Of a stretch of DNA of 25,337 bases, positions 325 through 25,337 are shown one piece after another. A program made the translations under genes and the position numbers. The DNA is from a virus. Its lineage: Duplodnaviria; Heunggongvirae; Uroviricota; Caudoviricetes. Under the pieces are notes generated by a model that was not told where the DNA came from, searched no databases, and saw only the letters and a list, made by a program, of their open reading frames with translations. The stretch is taken from positions 1 to 25,337 of the IMG/VR virus record IMGVR_UViG_2698536560_000009; one strand, given 5' to 3'. Each line of letters begins with the position of its first letter. The stretch's first letter is position 1.

Positions 325-325
325 G

Positions 326-1359: not shown

Positions 1360-1360
1360 A

Positions 1361-1915: not shown

Positions 1916-1931
1916 ATATTTTCCTTATAAA

Positions 1932-1949
1932 GCCCACATGAATGTGGGC
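1932..1949 (-). terminator. intergenic hairpin downstream of the tape measure gene
   Basis: gcccaca / tgtgggc 7-bp stem with a 4-nt loop, between the tape measure stop and the next ATG. On the minus strand it is followed by UUUAUAAGGAAAA. It may be a partial terminator or an mRNA-stabilising hairpin. Confidence 0.25.
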
Positions 1950-1962
1950 ATACTGTATTTAC

Positions 1963-4224: not shown

Positions 4225-4225
4225 A

Positions 4226-4588
4226 TTATTTTCTTCCCATCCAGTTTAACATGTTAGCTCTCTGTTCTTCGGCGATCCGTTTCTCTCTCTCTTCGGCTTG
4301 TTCTTTAATGGTCTTATTGTTGATGATATTAAGAGAATCCAATTCTGTGATACTGAATTTCTTTAAGTCTTCCTTCTTAATATTCCCAGTACTGAGCCAT
4401 ATAGCCTGGAGTATTTCGGTATGTCTTACCTGTTCAATTCTGGAAGAATTTGGTTCTACAAAAGTGTCATATACAAATAGATAGATAAAAAGCGAAAAGG
4501 GCATGGTGCAGAGATCTTCCACACCACACCCTTTTGTCATCAGCATTTTTAGAGAAAGTTTAAGAAACGGATCGCCCCTTACTTTTTT
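4226..4588 (-). CDS. tail assembly chaperone -1 frameshift extension (gpT-like part of G-T fusion)
   Basis: This frame is open from 4588 down to the TAA at 4226-4228 and is the -1 frame relative to the G-like ORF. The slippery heptamer A_AAA_AAG sits at 4588..4582 on the minus strand, just before the G stop. The ORF-track Met at 4546 is internal to the extension. Confidence 0.6.
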   Translation of the reverse strand, partial: KKVRGDPFLKLSLKMLMTKGCGVEDLCTMPFSLFIYLFVYDTFVEPNSSRIEQVRHTEILQAIWLSTGNIKKEDLKKFSITELDSLNIINNKTIKEQAEEREKRIAEEQRANMLNWMGRK

Positions 4589-4869
4589 TCAATTTCTTCA
4601 ATATTCATAGCTTCGGTAAAAATACGCGTGATTTCGGTATTAAGTTTGATTTGATAAACCATGTCAATTTCGCTCTCTACCTGTTCTGGTGATTTAAAAA
4701 GTTGTTTACCATTGGCATCAACTACACAGTAATGGATTGTAGTGTACGGGTCACTACATTCACTATACTTAGAAATAGCTGGAAGACGAATATAAACAGT
4801 AAACCCCGGAGCAAGTTCAAAGGCATGTTTTTTGACACCAATTGCTGTCATTAGATTAGATAGATCCAT
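4579..4869 (-). CDS. tail assembly chaperone (gpG-like)
   Basis: 96 aa acidic ORF between the tail tube gene and the tape measure gene. Ends ...EIEKK-stop with the final codons GAA AAA AAG TAA forming a classic slippery site. Confidence 0.6.
   Translation of the reverse strand: MDLSNLMTAIGVKKHAFELAPGFTVYIRLPAISKYSECSDPYTTIHYCVVDANGKQLFKSPEQVESEIDMVYQIKLNTEITRIFTEAMNIEEIEKK
4582..4588 (-). other. programmed -1 ribosomal frameshift slippery heptamer A_AAA_AAG (G to GT)
   Basis: The minus-strand mRNA reads GAA AAA AAG UAA in the G frame. After a -1 slip it reads AAA AAA GUA AGG... into the open T frame. Confidence 0.6.
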
Positions 4870-4901
4870 GTGTATTTTTTCCTTATTATGATTATTTTAT
4901 A

Positions 4902-5378
4902 TTATGGTTTTGCTGCAATTTCACCAACTGCTACAGGTTCGCCCGTGATTGTCATAACAAATTCACGTGTTGCTACAGCGTCAAAATCGCCACCGACAAC
5001 ATCAGAACTAATATAGCCATTAACTATCGAGTAATAACCCACTCCATCGGTATCAGCGATGTTTTCGTAATAAGTTACTTTTACCTGCATAAGCGTCTGT
5101 TTTTGAGCTGCGGTAACTAACATCTCTTGACCTACTGCCCCTGGTTTCCAGTTCACCGATAGGGTTAGATCTGGCACAGAACGAGATCCTAAAAGCTTCT
5201 GTGCGTACTGCTTACCAAATGTATTTACTGAGATAATTGTAGACTCAGCACCTGCTGCTGCCGGGAAAGCTGCAACTTCTTCAATTACTGTAAAAGTGGT
5301 TGCCTGACCACCACCTGCTGGTGCTTCTGCAATTTCTACTACAACGTTATTCGCTGCGAAAATTCGATTAAAAGCCAT
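4902..5378 (-). CDS. major tail tube protein (lambda gpV-like N-domain)
   Basis: 158 aa, immediately upstream of the chaperone genes. The pattern LTLSVNWKPG...NGY...GDFDAV..REFV resembles the gpV tube domain and is shared with the N-terminus of the 560-aa protein at 8288-9970. Confidence 0.55.
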   Translation of the reverse strand: MAFNRIFAANNVVVEIAEAPAGGGQATTFTVIEEVAAFPAAAGAESTIISVNTFGKQYAQKLLGSRSVPDLTLSVNWKPGAVGQEMLVTAAQKQTLMQVKVTYYENIADTDGVGYYSIVNGYISSDVVGGDFDAVATREFVMTITGEPVAVGEIAAKP

Positions 5379-5399
5379 TTTAATTTCCTTATTTAATTA

Positions 5400-5435
5400 G
5401 GGTAACGTCCTGTTACCCGTTTCCTTTTTTTATTT
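5400..5435 (+). terminator. hairpin plus T-run, oriented antisense to the late operon
   Basis: gggtaac-gtcct-gttaccc stem-loop (5400-5418) followed by gtttcctttttttattt on the plus strand. It lies between the 964-aa gene and the tail tube gene. Confidence 0.3.
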
Positions 5436-8324
5436 ATGAAGATTGTAGTAATGCACATATAGCCCCAATCCGCGTAAAAGTTCACCCGAATAGAAACCAA
5501 AGAACATACTATTGTTTTCGGCAGTTGTTTCATTACCTGTTCTGATTGACGCAGGCCATGTACCATTCATTACATGATTTGGTGAAATAACTGCATAGTT
5601 AAGTTGTATTTCATCAAATAGTAATTGAATTAGCTCATGATCTGGATATCCGGCGATAGCCATCATACATGCCCCTGCTAACCATAGACCGGACATATGA
5701 GGGGTAAAGCCATCATATTCTACAGAACCATTATCCCTAAAATAGGTAGGAGCTTTACCGCCATTATTTTTCATGAACCATTTTAGATAGTTCATCCAGT
5801 TCTGGCAGAAAGATATTAGTTTAGGAGGTATTACAGTACTGTCTTGTCGTGACCATAATTCATGTACTGCATCACACCCACCAAAGAAAGCCCTTGGTTC
5901 GTATCCACTCCATGCTTCGGCGTACCAGTGCTGCATTATGAATTGATCTGGCTTACCATCAGGGGCATATGCTAAAGCGTCCTGTCTGTTCCATACGAAA
6001 GCCTGTGCACATGGTCCTGGTAATGATGGTTTAAATTTATTTGTAAACCATGCCTGAGAATCATATAGAAAATTGATACTGTTATTTAAGCGAGTATGAT
6101 CTATTTCTGTTCCTTTAAAGCACCAGATCGCCGGTAGTTGATAACCCGGATACGGTAGACCACGCCACCCAGAATATAACTGGGCATAGGGATCGGTAAT
6201 GTTAGAGAACGGAATTAAACCCGGAGTATACGCAAGACTATCTAGCATATAATCCTTAATAGTACAGTCACCTAAACGGGCTGTGTAACCATTACCAGTT
6301 GTGTCGTTAAACGTAAGCAGTACTGTGACCGAATAATCACCTGTCCCACCATCTGTATACATCGCAGGCAAATCATTAATACAATACCAGTCAATCTTCC
6401 CATTCACACCATTTACTGGATCTGCATCAAGTAGCAGTGTGAAAGATTCACGGTTCGTTAGTACTGGGCTTGCGGGAATAGGATCAGGTTGAATCCATTC
6501 TCCTGGGTTATCTGGATCTTCAATTTCGGGGTGATCGGGTTGATAACCGTTTAGTTTGAAGTCAGCAATAGTAAAAGTCTTTGTAACCCATTCACCATTT
6601 GTTGCAGGGAGCATAGCCCACCAACGCCATTTATTATCATCACTTATACGAAAGTTAAAATCATCATCATATGAACGATAGGTAAAAGATTGAATATTGG
6701 CAGTCTCTGGTGTGAATATCCAAAACCCCACCACCTGTCCCCCGTCACCATCCATTGTTGTAGACACGACGTTATCGTAATAATTTCCAAGTACTCCACT
6801 CTGATATTCAAAGTTTGTTACCGTGTTATCTCCATAATCGGCGATCATACGTAGATCAGCAGTCATATAATTAGAGCCATCTGGTTTCATTACACGTGTA
6901 AAACGATTCATAGGAATGTCCATTGTAGTGATAGAGCCATCTGGATTAGTCATTGGTAGACCACACCGATAATCAATTGCACCTTCTTCTGTTTTTGTTT
7001 TATTCACTGTGACTTCAGCAGAAACTGACATTGCAGTACTGGTATTATCAACACCACCATATTCAATATGAAACTTTGAGTTATTATTGAATTTAAACCA
7101 GATTGATTGTTGTTCTAACATCGTCTGTGCGGATGCACTTTGATTTATTACAATATAACCCTGTGCATCACGGGAATATGATGCTACTTGCTCACTTGGG
7201 TAGAAGTAGTCGTATGAAATACCATCAGTAAAAGGTGTTACGGCAATAGTAGATTTACGAAAGAACATATCGTACTTGTCAATATCTGAATATCCATAAC
7301 AGGTTAATAGTGCACATTGCCACGCAAGATAATACTGGCGTTCTCCTGTAATATCCCAAAGTAGCTTGGCTGCCTGACAAAACCATAATTCGGCATCTGA
7401 TGCATTATCAGAGAAGTCCAAAGAACCATAGTTATCAATCGGTACGTGTACAGGTCGGTTATGCCAGCGTTCATTACGCTTGAACATATACCCGCCATGT
7501 TCTACAGGGTTTCGGGTTGCATAGTTAAAACGATATTCACCAGTAATGGTTTTATTCTTTAACTGTACTGTACCTTCCTGACCAGTTAGACCGGATTGCA
7601 GTACAGTGCCGTTTGAGTCTACCTTACGTCCGGTACGATCAATGATCCATTCGACGTCATAGGTTGGTGCTTTAGTGTCCCAGTCTATTGAGTCTTCATT
7701 GGCAAGCCACAGATAAGCAGTTGCGTTAACCTGATTCCAGCCAAGTCCCGCACGCTTAGGGAAGGCAAACCATACTGCATCGAGGTATTCACCCCAGTGT
7801 GGTGCACCATGTGGGATCTTTGTAAGGCCATTAGCCCATGTGAATAGTGTCCCTTTAAAACCGCCATGCGTCGGATATTCTGGATCTAATGGGTAGTGTG
7901 CCAGTACTGGAGCCTTCCCATTACAAATCCAATTACAGCGTAGTGATGAACTCGGTGGATCTGGAAATGGTGCACCACGATAGAACGCCTTGTGATATGC
8001 GTTAAAGTACTCTTTTGCCTTCTGTAGATAGAAAGGGTCTTTAGTTGCCTGATACACATATATTGCCCCCAGAATCTGGAGGCTTTGACCTTCTGTAGTT
8101 GCATCACCTTCCGGCTGTGCCTCCCATCCAGTTTCTGCAATAAAGTGACGGTTGTTTGCAAGTACATTATCTGGGTTTAATACATAGTGCTGTGTCTTAT
8201 TATTTGTTGTAAGGCCAGTATTACGTGCCAAGAACTTAAACTGACCTTCGATCATTTGATATGCATTATCTATATTGTGTGGTTTCATTATTTCATATCT
8301 GCCATTAGTAGAGAGCCGTACCAA
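5430..8324 (-). CDS. large virion-associated protein, possible carbohydrate-active/receptor-binding enzyme
   Basis: 964 aa (952 aa if ATG at 8286-8288 is used instead of the TTG at 8322-8324, which has a GGGGG Shine-Dalgarno). Very rich in W/Y/F with Gly-aromatic motifs such as GFTPHMSGLWLAGACMMAIAGYPDHE and FFGFYSGELLRGLGLY, which suggest a glycosidase-like fold. The functional call is inference only. Confidence 0.3.
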   Translation of the reverse strand: MVRLSTNGRYEIMKPHNIDNAYQMIEGQFKFLARNTGLTTNNKTQHYVLNPDNVLANNRHFIAETGWEAQPEGDATTEGQSLQILGAIYVYQATKDPFYLQKAKEYFNAYHKAFYRGAPFPDPPSSSLRCNWICNGKAPVLAHYPLDPEYPTHGGFKGTLFTWANGLTKIPHGAPHWGEYLDAVWFAFPKRAGLGWNQVNATAYLWLANEDSIDWDTKAPTYDVEWIIDRTGRKVDSNGTVLQSGLTGQEGTVQLKNKTITGEYRFNYATRNPVEHGGYMFKRNERWHNRPVHVPIDNYGSLDFSDNASDAELWFCQAAKLLWDITGERQYYLAWQCALLTCYGYSDIDKYDMFFRKSTIAVTPFTDGISYDYFYPSEQVASYSRDAQGYIVINQSASAQTMLEQQSIWFKFNNNSKFHIEYGGVDNTSTAMSVSAEVTVNKTKTEEGAIDYRCGLPMTNPDGSITTMDIPMNRFTRVMKPDGSNYMTADLRMIADYGDNTVTNFEYQSGVLGNYYDNVVSTTMDGDGGQVVGFWIFTPETANIQSFTYRSYDDDFNFRISDDNKWRWWAMLPATNGEWVTKTFTIADFKLNGYQPDHPEIEDPDNPGEWIQPDPIPASPVLTNRESFTLLLDADPVNGVNGKIDWYCINDLPAMYTDGGTGDYSVTVLLTFNDTTGNGYTARLGDCTIKDYMLDSLAYTPGLIPFSNITDPYAQLYSGWRGLPYPGYQLPAIWCFKGTEIDHTRLNNSINFLYDSQAWFTNKFKPSLPGPCAQAFVWNRQDALAYAPDGKPDQFIMQHWYAEAWSGYEPRAFFGGCDAVHELWSRQDSTVIPPKLISFCQNWMNYLKWFMKNNGGKAPTYFRDNGSVEYDGFTPHMSGLWLAGACMMAIAGYPDHELIQLLFDEIQLNYAVISPNHVMNGTWPASIRTGNETTAENNSMFFGFYSGELLRGLGLYVHYYNLHK

Positions 8325-9970
8325 GTACTACCCCCGTCTACTGTGACAAACTGAAATACATCAGTAGAATCTTTTGTAAAGGTTAATACTGGAACACGCC
8401 CATAAGACCATAAAATGTTTGTAGGCCAGGATATTTTATTTGCCCCTGTACCCTGCTTAATAAGCACCTGAAATGTTTGACTCTTTTTGTCATTACCACT
8501 TGCATTTAGTACAGAGAAGTTTGACGTTGGTTGTGATAGAGTCACGGTGAATGTAGTTTTACTATCACTCAAATCTATTTCTAATGAATTATTTACAAGG
8601 GTATTTAGTTTAAGAATATCATCTACAATTGTTACCTTCGTATCAATATCTTCCTTCAGAACCTTGTCTTTGTCATCGATCTGTTTCTTTGAATATGTTC
8701 CTACATCATCAAAATTCAGTACTATATTACTGTTAAGAGCATACCCGTTAATAGTGGTGATACGTAGTGCAAATAGATCATTTGACTGGGTACGTGAGTA
8801 CACATCAGGAATATCAGCAGCAACTAATTGAATGTTAGTTCCTGATAATGGCTTATTGTTGATTAAGTATGTTTTTGGTACATATGTGTTATTAGTAAAA
8901 ACAATACTTGCCATATCTGGGAGTTGTGCGGCTGTCAGTGTTATATTCTGGGAAAGACTTAAACCGTTAACAGTAGTTGTTTTTTTAACAAATGAAGTAT
9001 CAACCTGAGTCTGTGAATACACATCAAGAATATCTGCGGCAACTAAGTTTAATGCCGTACCGGATAGTGCATGACCGTTTAACTGGAATACTTTTGGGAC
9101 TACGTTCTGATCTATATACGTCTTACTGTATACATCAGCGATATCAGAAGCCAGTAGTGTAATATTAGCAGTTAGTGGTTTGCTATTGATAGTACGGGTA
9201 ATCGGTACGTAGTCTGCAAGGGATGCACTTGATGCAGCACCCAGTTCTGTCAGTGTAGGTTTATCAGCACTGGTATAGACCTTGTACCATGCCCCCATAG
9301 ATGCACCATAGTTACGCACGTTAATTATTGGCGTACCTGTCTTACTGATAACCAATTGTGTACCAAAGTTCGAATCAAGGTTATTAATACCGAGTACATC
9401 TGTCCCTGTTGGTGAACCTGCACCAGGGATCTTAATAAAAGCATTACCGTCACGCCCCTGATAACTTGGAAACTCAATACCGTTTGCACCTACGCCCCAG
9501 TCTCCGCGATTTAGAGGGACTATCGTACTGTCAAGAATACCCGAAGAAAGTTGTTCGTTTGGGGTGAATACGTAGGAACGGGAAGTAACAGAATCATAAT
9601 CACCACTGGTGGATACAGAAGCCAGATAACCATTATAAAGTGCATAGTTAACCGTAAGGTCATTCTGTCCTTCATCGGGGATCTCTACCTTCATTTGTAC
9701 TAATTGGCGACTTTTTACGATGTCATCAAGAAACTTATGTTTAGCAGGAACCCAGTTAACCGTAATAGTGACATCACCATATGTGCTATCACCTGCTACT
9801 TTTTCGATGTATTCAGAGTCATATGTTTCAATAGCAAGGGTTGCAGTACTGTGACCGAATGAAGGGAACCCGCTTAATTCTGGTACTTCTTTAAATCCCT
9901 TCGATTTGGGGTCACTGTTTAATGTGTCGGTGTTAATCCATACACTTGTGTTGTTAGTAATAAAAGCCAT
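8288..9970 (-). CDS. tail protein with gpV-like tube N-domain and C-terminal tail-fibre-type repeats
   Basis: The first ~140 aa align by eye with the 158-aa tube protein (VNW.P, NGY, GDYD.V..R.YVFT). This is followed by about five ~37-aa repeats of the form (I/V)N(S/G)KPLSG.NI.L.AADI.DVYS.T, resembling the phage tail fibre repeat seen in side tail fibres. Confidence 0.5.
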   Translation of the reverse strand: MAFITNNTSVWINTDTLNSDPKSKGFKEVPELSGFPSFGHSTATLAIETYDSEYIEKVAGDSTYGDVTITVNWVPAKHKFLDDIVKSRQLVQMKVEIPDEGQNDLTVNYALYNGYLASVSTSGDYDSVTSRSYVFTPNEQLSSGILDSTIVPLNRGDWGVGANGIEFPSYQGRDGNAFIKIPGAGSPTGTDVLGINNLDSNFGTQLVISKTGTPIINVRNYGASMGAWYKVYTSADKPTLTELGAASSASLADYVPITRTINSKPLTANITLLASDIADVYSKTYIDQNVVPKVFQLNGHALSGTALNLVAADILDVYSQTQVDTSFVKKTTTVNGLSLSQNITLTAAQLPDMASIVFTNNTYVPKTYLINNKPLSGTNIQLVAADIPDVYSRTQSNDLFALRITTINGYALNSNIVLNFDDVGTYSKKQIDDKDKVLKEDIDTKVTIVDDILKLNTLVNNSLEIDLSDSKTTFTVTLSQPTSNFSVLNASGNDKKSQTFQVLIKQGTGANKISWPTNILWSYGRVPVLTFTKDSTDVFQFVTVDGGSTWYGSLLMADMK

Positions 9971-9973
9971 AAA

Positions 9974-10410
9974 TTATTCCCCATAGCTAAAAGATATAGT
10001 TTGTGTATGCACATACATCGTATTAGTTGCTTCGGCCTGGGTAGTCATTAAGCTCTCTTCCAGAACAACATTGAAAACATCCATTGGAAGTAGTTTGTTC
10101 AATTCATTAATAAAACCACTTGCATAGATTGCATCAATCACTTTACTAATTTCATCTGATGCAAGTTTATAATTTTCGCCTACTGCTACAAAGTCCACTC
10201 TAAATTCACAGAGATAATTAATCCCACGTGGTATTAATTGACCATTAATTAATGTATTTGCTTTTTGAATGCGTGAACGTGTTACAGTACTGTCACCGAT
10301 GTATAACATTGGTTTGTCGTCTACCGTTGCTCTCGATTGATATTGAAGATTTACCAAAGTACTGAGATTATTAATCAAAAATTTCCGTATTGTGTAGTCT
10401 GAAGTTCGCA

Positions 10411-10411
<1 letters not shown>
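9974..10411 (-). CDS. putative neck / tail completion protein
   Basis: 145 aa ORF between the capsid gene and the tail genes, with TAATG start/stop overlap to the upstream gene. Assigned by position only. Confidence 0.3.
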
Positions 10412-12554
<2,143 letters not shown>

Positions 12555-13998
12555 GGGTTAGTACTGGTGAATAGCCCATCTCAGAAATTATTTGTTCTTT
12601 ACTCTTTAATCCATTTTCCATTGCGAGAATCTCAGTCTGTAAATCTTTCAGTGGGTCTAGACTAATATGACGTTGTGGAATGAAATTACATTCAGTTAGT
12701 TCAGTAAATTTACTAAATGGCAAATCCTTCAACATCGGGTTATTTAGCATTTCATTCTTGAGCCACTTAATATACAAAGGTTGAAGTACTGACTTAACCA
12801 GGTTGTTTTGTTTTGCAAGAAATGTATTTTGCTGAATTTTGTCTGTTAACTTCGAGGCACTGAATGATGCCCCTGCGGTCGAACCTGTTAACGTCTGTGG
12901 TGTAAGATCGAGTGACATCCCTATGAAAATCAACTGGTTATCTAGAAATTCCTGTAGTGCGTCGAATGTTTGTGATGGACTGAGTGACTTCACATCTTGA
13001 CCCTCACGAAGTTCTAACAGTACTCCACCCTCCATACGTGCAACCTGGTATTCATCTACATCAGAATCGTCATCATCATCAATATCTTCAAATGATGCAT
13101 CACGTGACGCATTCGTGATAAAACCCATGCTTTCCGCTGCTAATTGTCGCGTCTTGATTGACGCCCTCATGAATTTATCCAGGTCTGCCAGTAGTCCAGT
13201 ACCGCAAAATATATCGGGAATGCCGCGTTGCTGTTCTGGATAGTCAGTACTGAATAAGTGAAGGATCTCTTCTGCGGGTACACGTTCTGCTTCAGTACTA
13301 ACTGAGTACGATACGGGGTCATATTGTGTTAGAAAGTAAGCAACGGGTTTACCAGTGCCTTTTTCAAACTCAATACCATTTGAACGATAGTTACCATTAC
13401 TTAGCCATTGATTACCTTTCGTATCAATTACAGTACTGTCTAGTACTTCAATCTTCATACCAGGATGGATACGAATAAAACAACTACCATCAATTGAACG
13501 TGTCTTCTCTACCAGTGACTGGAATTTGGACATTTCAAGTTTTCCATTTAGGGAAAAACGTGCGGGGTCTTCACACCATGAGTAGAACGCATCGGCGAGA
13601 CGTTTATTAATATCATTATTAACATTGTCATCTTCAGCAACGTGAACACATGGACGATACGTAATACCATTTGCACCACATACACTACTGGCATTCTGTG
13701 CAATATACTTCTTATGAATTGGGTTACTCATACTAAGCTGGCGACTTTGTAGTACTGCCGTGTTCAATACACGGTTAATTACGGCATTGATCGAGCCACT
13801 CTTACCAACTGCACCAAATGTACCAAGTTGTGCGGCTGCGTTACCGTTACCGATGGAAGAAATGGAACGTTTGGTTTCAATACCTAAATTACCAAGTACT
13901 GGTTCAGTACGTATTTTTGCCTTACCAATATATAGTTTTGGTTCTTCTTTTGGCTGTTCCTTTGCCTTTCTAAAATTAAAATTAAACATATTCCCCTC

Positions 13999-14475
13999 TT
14001 ATCTTGTAAAACGTGTAATTGATTTGATGGGGTTGCCCGTCTTAACTTTTCGTACACGTGCCTTTTCATCTGCAAGTTTCTTTGCATATACTTGTCGCAT
14101 ACGGTAAAGTACTTCAGCACTTTCTGTTACTAGTGTTTTATTATTAATGGTAAGTTGTGTAGTACCACCCCCAAGAATCTTGGATTCAATAACCATATCA
14201 ATTTCATCGATCAATTCCTGTAACTGATTTATTTTATTTGCTGCTTCAAGTGGATCTTTAACAGTGAAAAGTTGTACAGACATACTACCATCGCTAATAA
14301 TTGCAGTACTGACACCAGCTACCCATTGAGATGTATCAATGGGTAAATTTGGAAAGTATTCTTGCTCATTACCTTTTGCATCAATGATTTTAATCGTTGC
14401 TGTTGATGGGAAGTCTAGTACTATAGTTTCACCAATAAAGATCGGGCTAGTTAAGTCCGTCTTACGTGGATTCAT
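13999..14475 (-). CDS. hypothetical head protein (gpW position between terminase and portal)
   Basis: 158 aa ORF with ATG at 14473-14475, lying between the large terminase and portal genes. No motif recognised. Confidence 0.35.
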   Translation of the reverse strand: MNPRKTDLTSPIFIGETIVLDFPSTATIKIIDAKGNEQEYFPNLPIDTSQWVAGVSTAIISDGSMSVQLFTVKDPLEAANKINQLQELIDEIDMVIESKILGGGTTQLTINNKTLVTESAEVLYRMRQVYAKKLADEKARVRKVKTGNPIKSITRFTR

Positions 14476-14487
14476 ATTAATTCCTTA

Positions 14488-16407
14488 TTAAAACCAGTTA
14501 CGATTATTAAGTGCTGAAAGTCCTTTTTTCTTAGGTTTTGATTTCTGCTTCTCTTTCTGTACTGGTTGTTGTTCTGCTTTAGTTTTTATGGATTCTTCTA
14601 CTTTAGTATTTAGTTCTTTTTGTTTAGCTCTATACTCTCGCAACTTCCTATACGGTTGTGCACCAAGTGCCTGTATCTTGTGATCAATCGCTGCTAATGA
14701 GTAGACGAGCGTATCGAGACATTCGTTACGCTCTCCATTTGGATTCTCCCATACCATCACTGAACCTTTTCGTACTAGTTTTTCTGCTGTAAGTTGGAGG
14801 AAGTAATCATCGACAAGGGAATGACTGAAGTGTATATTAGTACTATACTCTCCCCCTTCACATGCCTGTCGTAATAACTTCTTAACCTGGTGCTTCAGTA
14901 CTTGAGTATTAATATTAACCAGTTGATGTCCTGCCGTTGTGGAATCCTTCGTGATGGGACCAGTCTGTGTGTTTGCACCCTTAATTGCATGCCATCGTCC
15001 CCCACTGGAAGAACAAAAGCGATATATGGAACTGGTTGCAGATCCGTTTGAGCTATCAATAAAGGATCTCAGTACTGGTACTTTTCTACCTGAAGTGGTT
15101 TTAAATATACTCTTACTATAATTAAGTAGTTCAGTATATGCCTTATCTTCATACTTAGTACAATCGACACCATAAAACATACGGTGGTCCAGAACCCATA
15201 TATTCTTTTCATCAAATGCAATAGTACTACATTCTAAGCGGTCTATCTGTTGGTCACATGCCAGTACAATACCAAGTGCATTATCTGGAATATGTTTTAC
15301 ATCTAAATCAAAGTCGCGTAAGTTTTCCAGTACTGTAAGATCTTCTTTAATATTATTCTTATCTACCCACGGTAAACCGAGTACGTTATTATAGAAAGAT
15401 TGTTCTTCAAAGTTTATCCATGAGTTCTTAAAGTCTTCAACAATCTTCTCAATAGTAGTAATCGGTGAATATAGTCTATTAACATGGTATCCCCTGAAAC
15501 CCATCACATGCAGTCTGTGTGCTTTCCAGTAACCTTTTGCAACCATCCGTGCACGTTGCCCTTCAGTGATTACTTCATCACATCCTGGACAGTGTAGGCG
15601 TGCTGTAGTGGGTTCTGGTGCATTACGTCGTTCGTTGAACTTCACCCATTCAAACTTTATATTCTCCCATTCTAAAATATGGTCATGATCACAATGTGGA
15701 CACACGACATGAAAATGTCTCTGGTCTGAGAGTTCCCATTGCTGGCAGATCATATCGTCCTGTACTAATGGTGTGGAGGCCATCACGATCAGGGAGTTCT
15801 TACCAAACTGAGTTGCACGCTGTTCTATGAGTGATAGGGGGTTGCCCTCATCTTGTTCTGGATCTACACCTGATAATTCATCAATGAAGATTGCAGGAAC
15901 TGTAAGCGAGCGTAGGGACTGGCTAGAATTGAGGTTAACAAAGTATGTCTTAGTACCGTCAACGTTCTGTTGAGTGTGTAGATCGTTTACTGCATTCTTA
16001 TCTGATTTGTCAGTGATTAATGCTTGAAGGTTTGGACACGCATTAATAGTATCCATCCATTTACCAGTACGGAACTTTTTCACAGTACTACCACTACTAC
16101 CCGCAAATATCATATGGGAGGGTTTATTTGCCATCCTGTAAAGCATTGCATTTTGTAGTATTGTTGTCTTGAGTAATTGTGCACTACTCATTAAACAGAT
16201 CTTCTGTACTGATGGATCTACTGTGGCGTTTAGGGGTTCTACTTGAAATGAAAATAATTTAGTTTTTTGTTGTGCCAGTGGTCCATCTGGAAATACAGTA
16301 TATTGTTCACACCATTCAGATGGTTTAATCTTCGGTGGGGGTAATATTGATTTCAGACTCTGGTTCAGAATCTTCATCATCTTCTTCTGGCTGTTCTTCG
16401 TACTCAT
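14488..16407 (-). CDS. terminase large subunit (lambda gpA-like)
   Basis: 639 aa. Contains Cys/His clusters (CPHCDHDH, HCPGCDE) and an acidic IFIDELSG segment typical of gpA-family terminases. Follows a Nu1-like small subunit gene. Confidence 0.8.
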   Translation of the reverse strand: MSTKNSQKKMMKILNQSLKSILPPPKIKPSEWCEQYTVFPDGPLAQQKTKLFSFQVEPLNATVDPSVQKICLMSSAQLLKTTILQNAMLYRMANKPSHMIFAGSSGSTVKKFRTGKWMDTINACPNLQALITDKSDKNAVNDLHTQQNVDGTKTYFVNLNSSQSLRSLTVPAIFIDELSGVDPEQDEGNPLSLIEQRATQFGKNSLIVMASTPLVQDDMICQQWELSDQRHFHVVCPHCDHDHILEWENIKFEWVKFNERRNAPEPTTARLHCPGCDEVITEGQRARMVAKGYWKAHRLHVMGFRGYHVNRLYSPITTIEKIVEDFKNSWINFEEQSFYNNVLGLPWVDKNNIKEDLTVLENLRDFDLDVKHIPDNALGIVLACDQQIDRLECSTIAFDEKNIWVLDHRMFYGVDCTKYEDKAYTELLNYSKSIFKTTSGRKVPVLRSFIDSSNGSATSSIYRFCSSSGGRWHAIKGANTQTGPITKDSTTAGHQLVNINTQVLKHQVKKLLRQACEGGEYSTNIHFSHSLVDDYFLQLTAEKLVRKGSVMVWENPNGERNECLDTLVYSLAAIDHKIQALGAQPYRKLREYRAKQKELNTKVEESIKTKAEQQPVQKEKQKSKPKKKGLSALNNRNWF

Positions 16408-16846
16408 ATGATCCTAATTCCCTTAGTTTCTCATCAATCCTTTCTTCTAGTTTTATCCGCAATGTATCCGCATCTTCACTTTCAAATAGTTCTACATAGA
16501 TAGATGCCGGAATACTTCTTAGTACTCCGCGTAGTGCTGCAAAATAACCAGTTAGTGTTTGAGTTACATAATCAGTACTCAATACCTTTTCAGTACTGAT
16601 ATTTAATTCAATCTCAACTAAATCTGCTTCAAGTGATATCTTGCGTAATTTCTCTTTTTCAATCTGTTCTTTTACATCAGTATTTCGCAATGGTTGGATA
16701 ATATTAATTAGTATCCATTGATCTATTTCTTTTTTACTTGCTTTCTTTGGGTGTGGCATTCCACGTTTTGCCCATTCACGGCTTACAGTACTGTCATTAA
16801 CTCCCATACGTTCTGCAATTTCGTTTGTTGTATATCTATCGTTCAA
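16325..16846 (-). CDS. terminase small subunit (lambda Nu1-like, N-terminal HTH)
   Basis: The N-terminal TNEIAERMGVNDSTVSREWAKRGMP resembles the Nu1 winged-HTH (…IRTIQNWQEQGMP), and the C-terminus is acidic. The start codon at 16844-16846 is TTG; the first in-frame ATG would truncate the HTH. Confidence 0.6.
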   Translation of the reverse strand: MNDRYTTNEIAERMGVNDSTVSREWAKRGMPHPKKASKKEIDQWILINIIQPLRNTDVKEQIEKEKLRKISLEADLVEIELNISTEKVLSTDYVTQTLTGYFAALRGVLRSIPASIYVELFESEDADTLRIKLEERIDEKLRELGSYEYEEQPEEDDEDSEPESEINITPTED

Positions 16847-16915: not shown

Positions 16916-16952
16916 ACTTCCCGATTGTGTCTATTCAGAGGGAAGTACCTAT

Positions 16953-16981
16953 AGTATTTATTAACCCTACCATGTTATACT
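16953..16981 (+). promoter_or_regulatory. candidate sigma70-type promoter with extended -10 (TGtTATACT) for the SLATT-NTase operon
   Basis: TG at 16973-16974 and TATACT at 16976-16981, about 30 nt upstream of the ATG at 17011. The -35 is weak. Confidence 0.3.
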
Positions 16982-17010
16982 GTTAGGGAATCGGATTTGT
17001 TGGAGTGTTT

Positions 17011-17514
17011 ATGAATCAGAAGCTCATCCAAACAGTCATTTCTGAGTGTCATCGTATAGAAGAGGACGCTCTTTACTCTTCTAAATCTCATTATAATGTT
17101 TCTGATAGATGGGATAAGCTGAATCTGTGGTTCGGTGTACCATTAGCAATCTTAACCGCTTTGAGTGGTATTGCCGCAATCAAGAGTACAGCCAATGCTG
17201 TTGTAGCTATTTCCATAACTGCTACAATTCTAACTGCATTAAATACGTCTCTTAACCCAAGTAAGCGTGCTGCACTTCATAAATCAGCAGCAAATGAATA
17301 TAATAAATTAAAGAATGAAGTTAGAATATTTAGGGAAATATTGACTTCTAATTTTGATTTTACTGATAAAACTTTGATTGAAAAACTTACGAGTTACTCT
17401 GATCGACGCAATCAACTTAATTCAAGTTCGCCAAATATTCCTCGGTGGGCTTATGAGAAAACTCAAAGAGATGTTAACCAAGGCTTTACTAAGTATAATA
17501 TTGACAAGGAATAA
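17011..17514 (+). CDS. SLATT-like two-transmembrane effector protein
   Basis: 167 aa from the ATG at 17011 (GGAG 6 nt upstream; the ORF track begins at a GTG at 17005). Two adjacent hydrophobic helices (LWFGVPLAILTALSGIAAI and AVVAISITATILTALNTSL) are flanked by short soluble regions. The stop lies 2 nt before the NTase start. The family call rests on architecture and on the SMODS neighbour. Confidence 0.45.
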   Translation: MNQKLIQTVISECHRIEEDALYSSKSHYNVSDRWDKLNLWFGVPLAILTALSGIAAIKSTANAVVAISITATILTALNTSLNPSKRAALHKSAANEYNKLKNEVRIFREILTSNFDFTDKTLIEKLTSYSDRRNQLNSSSPNIPRWAYEKTQRDVNQGFTKYNIDKE

Positions 17515-17516
17515 AC

Positions 17517-18293
17517 ATGACAGTCAGTACCTATCTTGAGTCTATTAAAAGCAATGCTTATCAAAGAGATATTACAATAACGAATTCAATTGCAACCATA
17601 AAAAACAGACTGAATGGTTATTTTGCTGGTGAACTTGTTAGTCATTTTGTATTTGGCTCATATTCACGTAATACAATGCTTCCTCGTAGCTATGATCCTT
17701 CTTCTGATGTTGATTATATGGTTGTATTCAAAAATGTAATATATCAGCCTCAGACCTACCTAAACAAGCTAAGGGGTTTTGTAAATTATTACTATCGTAC
17801 ATCTGAAATAAAGCAAAGCCACCCTACTATTCAATTGAACCTTAATCATATTACTTTCGAGCTTGTCCCTGCATCTCATAATATTTTATTTGGTTATCAA
17901 ATCCCTTCCAACCAGGATTTTTTGAACCGTTGGATGAATACCGATCCCAATGCGTTCAATACTGATTTAACTAATTGCAATAAAAATAATAACAATTTAA
18001 TTAAGCCTCTTATTCGCATAATGAAATATTGGAATGCCAATGCAGGTTATGTCTTTGAGTCGTATCAACTTGAAAAAGATATTGTTAGCTTTAACTATTT
18101 TTGGTGCTCTACCCTTAAAGAATATTTTTACTCTGCTGTAGAACAACTTTCAGGTTCCTATTATCTCGCACAATGGAAAAAAGATAAGATTCAGCGTCTA
18201 AAAAATTCAGTTATGATGTCAAAATATTATGAGCAGTTAAACAATCATTTTGCCGCCGAAAATGAAATAAAGAAAATTTTACCCATAAAATAA
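17517..18293 (+). CDS. SMODS / CD-NTase-like nucleotidyltransferase (Pol-beta superfamily)
   Basis: 258 aa. Carries the GS-x15-DVD signature (FGSYSRNTMLPRSYDPSSDVDYMVVF), a downstream acidic ITFELV, and a LIRIMKYW motif like the OAS/cGAS-type helix. AAGGA Shine-Dalgarno 8 nt upstream. Confidence 0.6.
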   Translation: MTVSTYLESIKSNAYQRDITITNSIATIKNRLNGYFAGELVSHFVFGSYSRNTMLPRSYDPSSDVDYMVVFKNVIYQPQTYLNKLRGFVNYYYRTSEIKQSHPTIQLNLNHITFELVPASHNILFGYQIPSNQDFLNRWMNTDPNAFNTDLTNCNKNNNNLIKPLIRIMKYWNANAGYVFESYQLEKDIVSFNYFWCSTLKEYFYSAVEQLSGSYYLAQWKKDKIQRLKNSVMMSKYYEQLNNHFAAENEIKKILPIK

Positions 18294-18571: not shown

Positions 18572-19246
18572 TCATGATTTAACAGATACTAATGCCAGAA
18601 TAGATGCTACTGCGGCAGCCAACGAAACTATAAGACTTAATGTAGGTATATATAATGCTGTAACTCTTCTAAACTTGTTCTCTTTGTCGTTATACTGAAT
18701 AAAAAACATCTTAATTTTCAGTAAGCGGATTAAAATTAAATCTTTTAATGCGGCCTTGTGTAAAACACCTGTAACACGGTGATAATGAAGTAAATTCTTT
18801 ACTGCTTTCTCTATTTTTTTTGGTGTTATGTGTTTAACGTTATATGAATGATGGACAATCAAGGAATCATGTGTTGCTAATGAATCATCTGAAGTAGACG
18901 GAAAAAGAATTATATGCACAGCCCCCGTCGCACTATATGTAATTGAAAGTGCGGCTCCTTTTTGCCAATGATGATTAAACTTTATGCTTTCGGTAGTTTT
19001 TTCCTGCCGCATATTTCCAGTCATACGATCAGCGATCTGAAATGTCAGGCAATCAAAACCATAACCATCTGGTTCATCTTGCATATCAATTATATTAAAT
19101 CTTATATGCTCTCCTGATAATTGGGTTGATAGTATTTCTAATTGCTTTTTTATTTTAGGTTTGAATATAATCCAGTTTACATTAGAAATTAATCTTCTAA
19201 GTTCGTCTCTTTCAAACTTTGCTCTAAGCTCTTTCTTCCACTCCAT
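18572..19246 (-). CDS. hypothetical tail-anchored membrane protein
   Basis: 224 aa with a GGAG Shine-Dalgarno and ATG at 19244-19246. A soluble His-rich domain is followed by a single C-terminal transmembrane helix (LYIPTLSLIVSLAAAVASILALVSV). Sits alone on the minus strand between hairpins. Confidence 0.5.
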   Translation of the reverse strand: MEWKKELRAKFERDELRRLISNVNWIIFKPKIKKQLEILSTQLSGEHIRFNIIDMQDEPDGYGFDCLTFQIADRMTGNMRQEKTTESIKFNHHWQKGAALSITYSATGAVHIILFPSTSDDSLATHDSLIVHHSYNVKHITPKKIEKAVKNLLHYHRVTGVLHKAALKDLILIRLLKIKMFFIQYNDKENKFRRVTALYIPTLSLIVSLAAAVASILALVSVKS

Positions 19247-19569
19247 TATCTCCCCCTAAGCCTCTTGCTACTATAGATTATTTAGATTCTATCGTACCAT
19301 AATTGATAAACTTACCCTAGGTCGATAATCAATAGTATATGTATGTTCTATTTGGTGGTAAAGTGTTAATGCTACATGGTATAGGCTATAATGATGATTA
19401 CTCATAAAATCAATTCTTATATCGATATTTTCAGTTTATTATCGCAGTTTGAGTATTCGTCCATGTATAAGTTTGCATAAAAAATAGCACACTGGTTAGA
19501 GTAAAATCATATTGAACATTGTGTTTGAATGCTCTATATTTTGGTGATGTTAACTTTTGAGATTGCAGA

Positions 19570-20373
19570 ATGAAATTTGTCTCTGAAAGAATTGACCATG
19601 TAAAAATAGCTAATGGATATTGTGTAATATGTGGTAATTTTGGCAAATTAAAAAAAGACCATGTTCCCCCGCAATGTGCATCTAAACCTTCACCTATGTT
19701 ACAAAAAACGATTTCTGAGTATTTCTCTAATACTCGAGTACCACCAATTAAAGCAAAAAGCGGGACAACTTTTCGTACCATTTGTCACAATTGTAACTCG
19801 AATATTTTAGGATCAATGGATGCAGAAATAGGCCGTGTTACAACTGAATTCATCGAAAAGTTAAATGATTATTTTAGTGGTAAGTTCTTTTACAAAAATT
19901 ATATTTCATTAAAATTTGATGCGGATAAATTTCTAAGAGCAATGATTGGACACCTTCTGGCTGCAACTTCAGTAAAAGATTGTATGAAGCCTATTGTTGA
20001 TAGTCCTTTTTATACTCCATTGAGAAATTTTGTATTAGGCAGGAATCCAGACATTGGGGCAACTCATAATATTTACTATTGGTTTTATCCATTCAGAAAA
20101 CAAATTACTGCTCAGTCAGTTACATTCTACAATAATGGACATCATAGTATATGTTCTTGCTTACATTTTTTCCCAATATCTTTTTTGGTTACACTGAAGG
20201 AGCAAGGAACATTTCCTATTCATGCAACTGAAATGACTCAATATGATCAATCTCTTCATTTTAATATGACAACGGCTAATATTGATTATGCTTCATTTCC
20301 CTTTGTAGGTTTAAAGAATAATCAATTTATGATGGTAATTTCTGGTCATACTTGTGTTAGTTATCCTAAATGA
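19570..20373 (+). CDS. HNH-motif (His-Me finger) nuclease-like protein with uncharacterised C-terminal domain
   Basis: The N-terminus contains C-x2-C ... DH ... C-x2-C-N (CVICGNFGKLKKDHVPP ... TICHNCNSN). The spacer is longer than in the canonical HNH motif. The C-terminal ~180 aa are unrecognised. Confidence 0.5.
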   Translation: MKFVSERIDHVKIANGYCVICGNFGKLKKDHVPPQCASKPSPMLQKTISEYFSNTRVPPIKAKSGTTFRTICHNCNSNILGSMDAEIGRVTTEFIEKLNDYFSGKFFYKNYISLKFDADKFLRAMIGHLLAATSVKDCMKPIVDSPFYTPLRNFVLGRNPDIGATHNIYYWFYPFRKQITAQSVTFYNNGHHSICSCLHFFPISFLVTLKEQGTFPIHATEMTQYDQSLHFNMTTANIDYASFPFVGLKNNQFMMVISGHTCVSYPK

Positions 20374-20400
20374 TTTTCAACTAAAGGTTGAGAAATATAG

Positions 20401-20445
20401 ACATAAGAACATAAGAACATAAGAACATAAGAACATAAGAACATA
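20401..20445. repeat. tandem octanucleotide repeat (ACATAAGA) x 5.6
   Basis: acataaga x5 then acata, in the intergenic region between the HNH gene stop (20373) and the next gene (20591). Confidence 0.9.
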
Positions 20446-20457
20446 GTCCAACTGTTC

Positions 20458-20519
20458 AGCGACACGTCCCACACACACCAACTAAACAAACCTACCCTTT
20501 ATGAGTGGGGCGTGTCGCT
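20458..20519. repeat. GC-rich inverted repeat with 15-bp arms (one mismatch) and a 32-nt CA-rich spacer
   Basis: agcgacacgtcccac (20458-20472) pairs with gtggggcgtgtcgct (20505-20519); the spacer is acacaccaactaaacaaacctaccctttatga. Confidence 0.8.
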
Positions 20520-20590
20520 AATAGTTTACGCCAGAATGGTTATTATGGTAAAGTTCATTTTTCACTTTGATATATTGGATTTCTAAAAAA

Positions 20591-21142
20591 ATGGAAGCTG
20601 AAACCATTACACAACTCATTGCAGTCGGTGGTACTTTAGGCGGTGCATTAATAGCTGCGGGTGTAACATTGGCAAGCCAATTAATCACTAAAAAATATGA
20701 GAACGAAAAACTAAAAAAACAACTTTTATTCAAAATACTCGAAGATGAATTAAAAGAAAAAAAGCAAACTATTAAACCTTTCATTCAGTTTATTAATTCT
20801 TTGAATCTTCCAGAAAATTTTAATTTTTATGATGATGGTGATCTTTTAGATCAAATTATGCTTTATAAACAGGATTTAATTAAAAGTAAAGCAAGTGACT
20901 TCCTTCTCGATTATACATTATACATGACACCACAAATTCACGATGCGATTTGGACGGTTACTAATGCTATAAATGATTTTGAAGAATTGGGAGCACGGTT
21001 TTATGATTCATCATTGAGTAAACAAGAAAACGATGAAATATTACTTAGAAATTGTAGCGGTAAGCCAACTGAAATTTGGGAAGCTTTGATGAAATTGAAA
21101 GGCTTGCTCTATAGTGAAGTTAACATAGCTGATAAATTATGA
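20591..21142 (+). CDS. hypothetical membrane-anchored coiled-coil protein
   Basis: The ORF track starts at a TTG at 20567; the first ATG is at 20591. An N-terminal transmembrane helix (LIAVGGTLGGALIAAGVTLASQLI) is followed by a K/E-rich helical domain. The stop overlaps the next gene's ATG as ATGA at 21139-21142. Confidence 0.5.
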   Translation: MEAETITQLIAVGGTLGGALIAAGVTLASQLITKKYENEKLKKQLLFKILEDELKEKKQTIKPFIQFINSLNLPENFNFYDDGDLLDQIMLYKQDLIKSKASDFLLDYTLYMTPQIHDAIWTVTNAINDFEELGARFYDSSLSKQENDEILLRNCSGKPTEIWEALMKLKGLLYSEVNIADKL

Positions 21143-21840
21143 ATATAAAAACTATAAACTCTACTCTTGTCGGCATTGTTGCAGTACTTCTGTTTTTAGC
21201 AGTCTTAGTACTCGTTAAGGTTCTATTCGCTGGTAGCAGGGGGTTTGAATGGGGGAACGCAGCTGATTTAACAAGTGCGTTATGCAATATCGTGATTGCG
21301 TCTACAGCTCTTTGTGCTGCTTTTGTAGCAAATAATTGGTTCGTTCAGAATAAAAAATTAAAATCCCTTTCTACCTCACATCAGTTGGCTATGAAATTTG
21401 AGATGCAGTTATGGGAAATAAATTCACGTTTATATAATGATGGTATAGTTCGTGCTTCCATCAGGAAATATGTTCAGGATAATAAAGAACTGACAGATGA
21501 AATAAAATCTAAAGTTGCTGCTGAAATTAATAAAAAGGCCACAAGTGATTTATCTGAACTTGCTAAGCTATATACGACAAGGTCAATGCTAGCCAGGTTT
21601 GATATTAAGTTAAGCGAACGGCTTGAAAATTTATTTAAAAATATATTAGAGTTAAGGCAGTCATATTTAGACAATCAATATATATATCTATTGACCATAT
21701 GCAAACATATTAATTGCCCCAAGCATGAGGACGTAATTGCAGCTACAGAAAATCTTGAAAGTGTTAAAAGAGAGCTAGCTGCCATATTTCAGTACGAGCT
21801 ATGTGAAACAAATATTGATACTGATTATTCGTTCAGCTAA
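21139..21840 (+). CDS. hypothetical 2TM membrane protein (paralog A)
   Basis: 233 aa with an N-terminal hydrophobic hairpin (LVGIVAVLLFLAVLVLVKVLFAGSRGFEWG, then LCNIVIASTALCAAFVANNWF) and a soluble C-terminal domain. The N-terminus is about 35% identical by eye to that of the 22818-23561 protein. Confidence 0.5.
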   Translation: MNIKTINSTLVGIVAVLLFLAVLVLVKVLFAGSRGFEWGNAADLTSALCNIVIASTALCAAFVANNWFVQNKKLKSLSTSHQLAMKFEMQLWEINSRLYNDGIVRASIRKYVQDNKELTDEIKSKVAAEINKKATSDLSELAKLYTTRSMLARFDIKLSERLENLFKNILELRQSYLDNQYIYLLTICKHINCPKHEDVIAATENLESVKRELAAIFQYELCETNIDTDYSFS

Positions 21841-23696: not shown

Positions 23697-23730
23697 AAAA
23701 CACCGGATTTATCATTGCATCTGGTGTTTT
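23697..23730. terminator. hairpin at the convergent junction of the plus-strand island and minus-strand small genes
   Basis: aaaacacc / ggtgtttt 8-bp stem with an 18-nt loop. The right arm overlaps the last codons of the 66-aa ORF. Confidence 0.25.
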
Positions 23731-24690: not shown

Positions 24691-24707
24691 TTATTATATT
24701 ATAGTGT

Positions 24708-24719
24708 TCCATTAATGAA
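24708..24719. promoter_or_regulatory. operator-like palindrome copy 1 (tccattaatgaa, one mismatch)
   Basis: Imperfect copy of the TCCATTAATGGA dyad. Confidence 0.3.
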
Positions 24720-24782
24720 GTAAAATTCACAATTTCAACGGTAGAATGCGGGTTTCAAGCCATATATGTTGGAATATAACAC

Positions 24783-24794
24783 TCCATTAATGGA
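24783..24794. promoter_or_regulatory. operator-like 12-bp perfect palindrome TCCATTAATGGA (copy 2)
   Basis: Perfect dyad, 41 bp from copy 3. Confidence 0.4.
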
Positions 24795-24823
24795 ATAAAA
24801 TCTCTATTAGTGGATTAACTCAT

Positions 24824-24835
24824 TCCATTAATGGA
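24824..24835. promoter_or_regulatory. operator-like 12-bp perfect palindrome TCCATTAATGGA (copy 3)
   Basis: Perfect dyad, 14 nt from the stop of the 162-aa ORF. Confidence 0.4.
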
Positions 24836-24848
24836 GTTAAAAAATGCT

Positions 24849-25337
24849 TCATTTACCATCAATGAAACCCTGTAGAATAATAATTAGTTCCTCTGCTGAT
24901 GCTCCGCTATCATGTGCGTTTGCTAACGTCTCATAGAACTGTTTGTTGTCTATGTAGTGCATTCCGTCCTTTTGCACTTTGAATAGCTTCACTTTGCGTT
25001 TATGTGCTGCTATAAGAGCTTTTGATACTGCGGTTGCTACACGCCTTACCTTTACTGCGGTAGATTCACTTACACGTTCCTGAACTTCTTTTATATGATA
25101 GTCCTGGTAAAGATGTAACCTGGCTAAAACTTTCTCAGTACTGAATGTGATCAAATTGAAAACGATGTAATAGATCTTAAATCCACTATATGGCTTACCG
25201 TTACCCATTGGGACTGATGCTATTGCTTCATCAATTATCTGTTTTGCTTCTGGTGTAAGATCGTTGTCATAGTCTCCAAAATTCCCCGCAATGCGTAGGA
25301 ATGGTGTATTGTCGTAATCTCGTGCTTTATTTGCCAT
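24849..25337 (-). CDS. hypothetical protein (possible regulator; start coincides with window edge)
   Basis: 162 aa ORF whose ATG is at 25335-25337, exactly at the window end, so the true start could lie beyond the window. Stop at 24849-24851. Followed by a region with three TCCATTAATGGA palindromes. Confidence 0.4.
   Translation of the reverse strand: MANKARDYDNTPFLRIAGNFGDYDNDLTPEAKQIIDEAIASVPMGNGKPYSGFKIYYIVFNLITFSTEKVLARLHLYQDYHIKEVQERVSESTAVKVRRVATAVSKALIAAHKRKVKLFKVQKDGMHYIDNKQFYETLANAHDSGASAEELIIILQGFIDGK

Follow-up and report, generated by a model that had tools for sequence, protein, structure and literature searches.

Promoter-early stem-loop (PeSL) cassettes of T4-like phages (Arbiol et al. 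2010, PMC2839356; Comeau et al. 2014, PMC4122927) are the closest analogue of the unit described here, in which a stem-loop is joined to a predicted promoter. PeSLs were shown to act as promoters and as terminators or attenuators, and to mediate cassette shuffling (PMC2839356). Like PeSLs, whose stems are often of the G/C-run kind, the present unit is a composite in which a sigma-70-like promoter consensus directly adjoins a stable intergenic stem-loop. Both occur in several copies per genome within plastic accessory regions (in the present family, two in the window, by which we mean the whole 25,337-nt stretch of DNA analysed, and two in the related locus L137). Both lie at the borders of insertions, deletions or replacements, PeSL crossovers having been mapped in or beside the stem-loop, and in both each cassette is proposed to be insulated and expressed.

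The unit differs from PeSLs in several respects. Its hosts are temperate Escherichia prophages with a lambda-type terminase, not T4-like myoviruses, and there are just one or two copies per genome, fewer than in T4-like phages. The stem (13-24 bp, with loops of 19-29 nt) lies wholly upstream of the -35 hexamer. The stem-loop sequence of PeSLs (GGGG...CCCC type) is conserved, whereas here the stems are unrelated and a loop motif of 13-15 nt is conserved. Promoter activity, terminator or attenuator activity and mini-circle formation are features of PeSLs, whereas here the promoter is predicted from sequence and a terminating role is proposed. We do not count the unit as a PeSL because its stem sequence is unconserved and because it adds a conserved loop motif, which PeSLs lack, at a nearly fixed distance from the -35 hexamer.

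The morons and linkers of lambdoid phages are similar in that accessory genes with their own promoter and terminator lie between core genes near cos, in a slot flanked by conserved sequence (the Hendrix-type moron model, discussed in PMC2839356). Morons, however, are not known to have a flanking element that is both conserved and repeated, whereas here one cassette precedes different genes. Hotspots in P2-like phages and satellites, reportedly described by Rousset et al. 2022, have a fixed slot near cos or structural genes with interchangeable anti-phage systems. The locus studied here likewise holds interchangeable defence genes (CBASS, an OLD-family nuclease), and the P2-like phage pro147 has a homologue of its 267-aa cargo protein, alone in the tail-fibre/sheath slot and without the cassettes. 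The present prophages are nevertheless a separate phage family. We know of no hairpin-promoter cassette described in P2 hotspots.

Prophage defence hotspots are well documented, but accounts of how cargo is exchanged and kept isolated in transcription come mostly from T4-like phages. As far as the searched libraries show, a cassette with a conserved loop and a variable stem at a prophage defence hotspot is previously undescribed. We give about an even chance to the reading that it is a composite stem-loop and promoter cassette, in which transcription of the next gene would start at the predicted promoter, the hairpin would insulate it and cap upstream messages, and the conserved block would serve as a linker in recombination. 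In favour of this reading are the joining of a promoter to a stable stem-loop, the repetition within the plastic accessory block, the position at exchange borders and the breakpoint inside the L122 copy.

The prophage and its cargo slot

The DNA of the window is AT-rich and belongs to a lambda-like prophage of E. coli (IMG/VR record IMGVR_UViG_2698536560_000009). Its minus strand encodes a lambda-type packaging, head and tail module (1-16846) that includes the small and large terminase, portal, fused protease/capsid and tape measure. The cargo slot contains a CBASS-type pair on the plus strand, a SLATT 2TM effector (17005-17514) and a SMODS cyclase (17517-18293). A 224-aa gene on the minus strand (18572-19246) lies between this pair and a 267-aa cargo gene on the plus strand (19570-20373), which is itself placed between two copies of the unit, cassettes A and B. 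The latter gene had been named an HNH gene in the first-pass annotation. Its product does have a zinc-ribbon/HNH-like N-terminus, but the HNH match is weak and N-terminal (PHROG E = 0.0037), and the family to which it belongs is phrog_21495, with no function assigned.

Cassette B precedes a conserved 183-aa gene with an N-terminal membrane helix (20591-21142, plus strand). This is the first core gene past the variable slot and is without a match in Pfam, PHROG or PADLOC. It is part of a four-gene block 3' of the hairpin region (183, 233, 273 and 263 aa), in which three of the genes encode membrane helices and no family matches were found.

A 267-aa protein identical to that of the window occurs in thousands of assemblies (roughly 7,800), on E. 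coli chromosomes. In N61 the prophage is intact (~36 kb), lies between yggR and yggS and has a large serine recombinase. In E. coli 55989 and most other carriers only a prophage remnant is present, with the terminase gene interrupted by IS100. N61 matches the window exactly across a 501-bp query (window 20250-20750). The tail-protein region of N61 contains an IS3 element (L012 4486-5648) that is missing from the window (5393-5566); because the IS3 is in N61 only, the window derives from a sibling genome or from a different assembly of the N61 lineage.

Searches of phage and plasmid DNA databases with megablast and blastn gave no match for the hairpin region. Within IMG/VR, no relative was recovered using the promoter pattern, the 267-aa protein, a profile of the 183-aa protein or the window arm, the last of these queries being the private T allele of the window, with which the common allele would be missed. 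A scan of IMG/VR with a 16-mer returned chance matches only.

Across the family, the variable slot lies between cos/terS and the conserved 183-aa gene, the 183-aa gene being on the strand opposite to terS and terL. The cargo of the window, shared with L120, consists of CBASS and the 224-aa and 267-aa genes. It is replaced by a 304-aa gene in E. coli FDN-24 (L014), by a 189-aa gene in E. fergusonii (L115), by an OLD-family nuclease in L119, and by other small genes in L123, L134, L137 and L138. The same cassette was found with different upstream cargo in eight contexts, and the homology between the window and FDN-24 starts exactly at the left arm of the hairpin. The alignments thus place the cassette at the exact edge of cargo exchange, and the slot is a cos-proximal defence hotspot.

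Several other features of the prophage were recorded. A DarT/Macro pair lies near the cargo slot in L123. A GC-rich block at ~16930-16990 (AATAGTTCGCGGCGAAACTTCCCG...GGGAAGTACCTATAG) adjoins the small terminase gene and is kept in L119, L115, L014 and L123. It is probably the cos site, for which the hairpin was also considered and rejected; the block beside terS is the better candidate, the hairpin being 0.4-3.6 kb away depending on the cargo. Past this candidate cos, and before the SLATT gene, the motifs ATAG, TATTTA and TTAACCCTACC bear a faint resemblance to those of the cassette. Three to four copies of a 14-16-bp palindrome (ACTCCATTAATGGAAT / TTCCATTAATGAAGT) are found in intergenic DNA at 24707-24837, upstream of a 162-aa gene on the minus strand (24849-25337), and look like an operator array of the prophage immunity/regulatory region. 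A 12-bp palindrome, CCCAGTACTGGG, occurs twice at 102-157, 30 bp apart in the first minus-strand open reading frame, and was scanned as a 15-pair inverted repeat.

Stem-loop, loop motif and predicted promoter

The stem-loop of cassette B (20450-20526, plus strand) consists of an outer stem (20450-20456/20520-20526), a GC-rich core stem of 15 bp (20458-20472/20505-20519; arms AGCGACACGTCCCAC / GTGGGGCGTGTCGCT, with one T:G), two inner pairs (20474-20475/20502-20503) and a C/A-rich loop of 26 nt (20476-20501). The 15-bp GC-rich inverted arms reported from the first reading are therefore confirmed, and the inverted repeat extends to 18 nt with 89% complementarity (20458-20475 / 20502-20519). When the outer AACTGTT/AATAGTT is included, the RNA folds with 22 pairs at -33.5 kcal/mol (z = -7.2 relative to 200 shuffles). 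A search for the inverted repeat elsewhere, which had been proposed as a check, showed the arm sequence to be unique within the window (0.02 chance matches expected). In a mononucleotide shuffle control, scanned for stems of at least 12 bp with one mismatch and a loop of 10-45 nt, 14 pairs were reached in two of five shuffles. Arm length alone thus does not establish that the inverted repeat is real; its GC content and extension do so and, most strongly, its conservation. In the common alleles (ten fetched loci) the stem is perfect, with C at 20467 where the window has T.

Relatives were found through homologues of the 183-aa protein (P0001-P0011), which occupy the same position in related prophages from E. 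coli, E. fergusonii and metagenomes. Down to 43% identity in this protein, a stem of 13-24 bp is present at the same place. The FDN-24 stem (CTATCAGCGATATCCCCCTC/GAGGGGGATATCGCTGATAG) is a perfect 20 bp with four double substitutions relative to 55989, and that of L123 reads TTCACGCCAC(A)CCC/GGG(A)GTGGCGTGAA. Distant members (55-43% identity in the 183-aa protein) have wholly different perfect stems of 18, 22 and 24 bp. The stems of L123, L134, L137a, L137b, L138 and L119b are unrelated, with 18-25 pairs and folds of -21 to -47 kcal/mol, and contain 10-24 bp of uninterrupted perfect complementarity. Among the seven closest alleles, both sides have changed in 10 of 18 pairs and 91% of cells pair. 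None of 500 shuffles matched this, and slid registers gave 0-2 double changes, the covariation as a whole being drawn from only about eight independent stem variants. Stems are weak or missing in cassette A of the window, L115, L119a and L122, and the stem is therefore dispensable in some contexts.

These comparisons indicate that the stem is held by complementarity alone, with its sequence free to vary even between copies in the same genome. Since the two copies in L137 have unrelated arms, the arm sequence is not read by any protein. Two half-sites for one dimeric protein were rejected on the same observation and on the varying spacing of the arms. Either the arms matter through their complementarity, as a folded nucleic acid, or they are kept complementary by mutational template switching. 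Template switching between the arms is a mutational route by which compensatory changes in DNA inverted repeats can come about without selection (PMC8794818).

The first-pass annotation had preferred a protein-binding or recombination site, or an RNA element with a large loop, over a simple terminator. The hairpin does not resemble an intrinsic terminator: such a terminator has a GC-rich stem, a loop of 3-8 nt and a U-run, whereas here the loop is 26 nt long and the tail reads UUUACG. As had been noted, there is no U-run, the sole U residues being the UUU of TTTACG. A terminator scan was empty at the hairpin and found no intrinsic terminator anywhere in 19200-21200, nor in 55989 or FDN-24. Conventional terminator-like hairpins lie just upstream of the cassette in FDN-24/L115, L137a and L119, and the gene upstream of the cassette is divergent in L137b and L138. 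Thus, given the missing U-run, the long loop, the terminator-like hairpins just upstream and the divergent neighbours, the hairpin is something other than a plain terminator serving the gene before it. The view of the first reading stands: stems that co-vary and a conserved loop motif point to a structured or recognised large-loop element, and the hairpin, often with a canonical terminator just upstream of it, marks a recombination boundary. Separately, a conventional bidirectional terminator-like hairpin, AAAACACCGGAT-N10-ATCTGGTGTTTT, is found at 23697-23730 between the convergent 263-aa (plus) and 66-aa (minus) genes, so this phage uses ordinary terminators elsewhere.

A conserved loop on stems that vary in sequence is what functional RNA hairpins classically show. 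The unit could be read as a structured RNA (a 3'-UTR element, a processed small RNA or an RNase III site) whose C/A-rich loop is read by a protein or an RNA and controls message stability or translation. RNase III substrates are about two helical turns long, a length that the 18-25 pairs would fit. The plus-strand loop is G-poor and unstructured, and in the window transcription reading through from the 267-aa gene would cross the hairpin, no other terminator being present. We consider this reading unlikely. No Rfam 15 family matches at its gathering threshold, even with the search opened to E = 10 (the best candidate at E ≤ 10 has 17 bits against a threshold of 70 bits), and no complementary target of the loop is present in the ~36-kb prophage or in the related loci. 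Upstream of the hairpin there is no conserved promoter, two copies have a divergent gene there as described above, and the tight abutment to the -35 hexamer is unexpected for a free-standing RNA. A search for tRNA and tmRNA gave no match at the hairpin. A retron non-coding RNA was rejected, there being no reverse transcriptase.

Within the loop of cassette B, the motif AACAAACCTACCC (20485-20497, plus strand) matches the family consensus TTAACAAACCYACCC. The motif is identical in L120, L123, L134, L119 and both copies of L137, and has one mismatch in L138. In every strong copy TTAACAAACCYACCC lies toward the 3' side of the loop. Within the window it recurs no more often than chance would give. 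From its 3' end it is 27 nt downstream to the -35 hexamer of the predicted sigma-70-like promoter of the 183-aa gene (20525-20554, plus strand), which consists of TTTACG (-35, 20525-20530), an 18-nt spacer and the extended -10 TGG TAAAGT (20546-20554). By alignment and pattern match, the arrangement of -35, 18 nt and TGnTAAAGT directly follows the right arm in all relatives. In its general form, the right arm ends in (G/A)ATAG, followed by T(T/G/A)TA(C/T/A)G, 17-18 nt, and TGnTAAAGT or TATAGT. A promoter scan flagged the FDN-24 version, with its TG. We infer that the conserved right-hand block is a sigma-70-type promoter with an extended -10.

The loop motif, centred near -69 of the promoter, could instead be bound as double-stranded DNA by a transcription factor, phage or host, that co-regulates all the cassette-linked accessory genes. 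The inverted repeat would then be secondary: either template switching produced it in passing, or it is a supercoiling-sensitive cruciform by which the site is hidden or exposed. Upstream of the -35 hexamer only the motif is conserved in sequence, and it lies 27 nt away in seven of 11 copies despite the differences in the stems, although this constancy could reflect descent without indels. Motif and promoter are kept where the stems have decayed (cassette A of the window, L122), wobble and mismatch positions show no RNA-strand preference (two favour plus, three favour minus), and in L137b and L138 transcription need not cross the hairpin. Such a binding site leaves unexplained why eight unrelated stems are near-perfectly complementary over 13-24 bp. 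Long spacers disfavour cruciform extrusion in duplex DNA, and those here are 19-29 nt. No candidate regulator was found. We therefore regard a duplex site as possible but somewhat unlikely.

A degenerate second copy of the unit, cassette A, lies upstream of the 267-aa gene (19269-19364, plus strand). Its stem (TACTATAGATTAT/ATAATCAATAGTA, 19269-19337) is weak and AT-rich, with a fold of only -8.2 kcal/mol. The motif and promoter-like block, which ends at 19364, contains TGATAAACTTACCC, ATAG, TATATG (-35, 19336-19341), 17 nt and TGGTAAAGT (-10, 19359-19364). A regular expression of the form ATAGTNTANG...TGGTAAAGT finds exactly two sites in the 25-kb window, at 19332 and 20521, both on the plus strand. 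With cassettes A and B both present, the 267-aa cargo gene is bracketed. A motif search of L137 also gave two cassette copies, with unrelated stems. L119 has an extra copy after the 183-aa gene and before the next gene, and L122 has a half copy in which the left arm of the L123 type and the loop are kept and the right side is different. All copies lie within the accessory block, at one or two per genome.

The bracketing of the 267-aa gene, the position of the hairpin exactly at the cargo boundary and the breakpoint of the L122 half copy at the loop/right arm junction would fit a dedicated site for site-specific recombination or capture, integron-like, at which a phage enzyme recognises the folded DNA hairpin through its loop and inserts or excises defence cassettes. 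The combination of conserved structure and free stem sequence recalls folded single-strand recombination sites. Integron attC sites, however, have conserved terminal R/L boxes and a variable centre, whereas the cassette has a conserved centre and variable arms, and the prophage has no tyrosine recombinase. No HUH enzyme or transposase is associated with the unit either, the large serine integrase at the prophage end being the only recombinase. The cargo on the cos side has no matching hairpin, and homologous recombination within the ~100 bp of conserved cassette would account for the same boundaries. A dedicated recombination site is thus very unlikely in our estimate. Two related candidates were rejected outright: attP, as the site is internal to the prophage, and an invertible promoter, as the spacer is only 26 nt.

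Proposed insulation, recognition and cargo exchange

In the composite cassette that we prefer, the unit would sit in front of accessory genes in the variable block beside cos, across the prophage family. The predicted promoter would drive the downstream gene, here that of the 183-aa membrane protein. The hairpin, stably folded in transcripts coming from the cargo side, in DNA or in both, would insulate this promoter from upstream transcription and would cap the upstream mRNA. The conserved ~100 bp may provide a homology linker for swapping defence cargoes, as proposed for the PeSL cassettes of T4-like phages. On the simplest view, the loop motif, at its near-fixed distance to the -35 hexamer, would be a recognition site for a factor acting on the promoter.

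Several observations count against this model, among them the copies with weak or missing stems and the mutational route to paired changes described above. A loop of 19-29 nt followed by a mere UUU makes a poor intrinsic terminator. With a divergent upstream neighbour, as in L137b and L138, there is nothing co-directional to terminate. Further, the conserved part of the hairpin is its loop, which insulation leaves unexplained.

A broader proposal is that unrelated perfect stems of about two helical turns, all presenting one conserved single-stranded 15-mer, define a class of structure-specific elements read by a dedicated phage or host factor. Such elements could serve the capture and exchange of defence cassettes (integron-like but without a tyrosine integrase) or the switching of accessory genes through DNA or RNA folding. 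We consider this proposal unlikely.

The compact unit of ~100 bp (stem, loop motif, predicted promoter) flanks a cargo gene on both sides and marks an exchange boundary, within a prophage remnant that thousands of E. coli assemblies carry, strain 55989 among them. Should the stem insulate and the conserved block be a linker for recombination, the concept of PeSLs would apply to temperate phages as well. Should a factor read the loop motif, this would point to one regulator shared by the accessory and defence genes of prophages.

The octamer array

Tandem Repeats Finder reported ACATAAGA at 20401-20445, in the 3' flank of the 267-aa cargo gene, with period 8, 5.6 copies, 100% matches and a score of 90, the top-scoring array in the window. 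The 5.6-fold octamer of the first-pass annotation is thereby reproduced. That annotation had also suggested that changes in copy number could alter promoter spacing in the manner of phase variation. The ancestral allele, ACATAAGAACATA, is a 13-bp proto-repeat of 1.6 units, relative to which the window array has gained 32 bp (four units).

Comparison across isolates, which had been put forward as a check, did reveal a difference in copy number. Out of 5,426 complete E. coli genomes, 90 have the locus and 88 the full locus. Among the matches listed, 87 of these 88 carry 1.6 copies (a 469-bp span) and N61 alone carries 5.6 (501 bp); no intermediate allele ranked between N61 and the 469-bp genomes. 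The 1.6-copy allele was also present in all ten chromosomal loci fetched via the 267-aa protein (L002-L011) and in three metagenome contigs (L127, L128, L130), the metagenome scan having recovered only these three copies of the common E. coli allele.

In phase-variable promoters of simple-sequence contingency loci, such as Haemophilus hif and Neisseria opc/porA, tracts are found inside the -35/-10 interval or adjoining these hexamers and vary widely among isolates. The octamer array resembles them as a non-triplet, intergenic short tandem repeat. It differs in lying outside the conserved promoter and in having 1.6 copies in all but one lineage. The array is 5' of the hairpin and the family-wide conserved promoter (20525-20554) is 3' of it, so octamer copy number cannot alter the conserved -35/-10 spacing. 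The array does fall inside another hexamer pair, TTGAGA (20388-20393) and CATAGT (20442-20447) on the plus strand, 48 nt apart in the window and 16 nt apart in the 1.6-copy allele. In the 55989 allele, TTGAGA-16 nt-CATAGT is promoter-like at chance level (three such matches found, 2.9 expected), and a promoter scan of the window did not find the pair with its 48-nt spacing. The pair belongs to the cargo flank and is missing in relatives with other cargo.

A phase-variation switch that tunes a promoter by hexamer spacing would be in keeping with the existence of a copy-number polymorphism (1.6 versus 5.6), with the stretching of the promoter-like pair from 16 to 48 nt, and with an independent expansion of AACCAT to 3.8 copies at the equivalent place in FDN-24. 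Among the 88 complete genomes and 13 contigs, however, there is one expanded lineage and there are no intermediates. The promoter match, at chance level and in the cargo flank, is outside the conserved unit. A tract of 1.6 copies is too short to slip at the rates known from simple-sequence contingency loci. The population data largely refute a switch, which we judge highly improbable, and this suggestion of the first reading is left unsupported. Most simply, the array is a recent replication-slippage expansion from 1.6 to 5.6 units that is private to the N61 lineage, and it probably has little or no regulatory consequence. A repeat array of the type III toxin-antitoxin kind was rejected because most genomes have only 1.6 units. 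The result is a useful negative, in that a perfect microsatellite beside a promoter proves to be a single-lineage expansion rather than a contingency locus.

The AACCAT repeat of FDN-24 (L014 7896-7918) directly follows the stop codon of a different cargo gene, and E. fergusonii (L115) has a single copy of this hexamer. In every allele the 267-aa gene has, immediately 3' of its stop codon, a short hairpin rich in AU (UUUUCAACU-AAA-GGUUGAGAA, 20374-20394), and L120 carries a compensated variant of it (CAACC AAA AGTTG).
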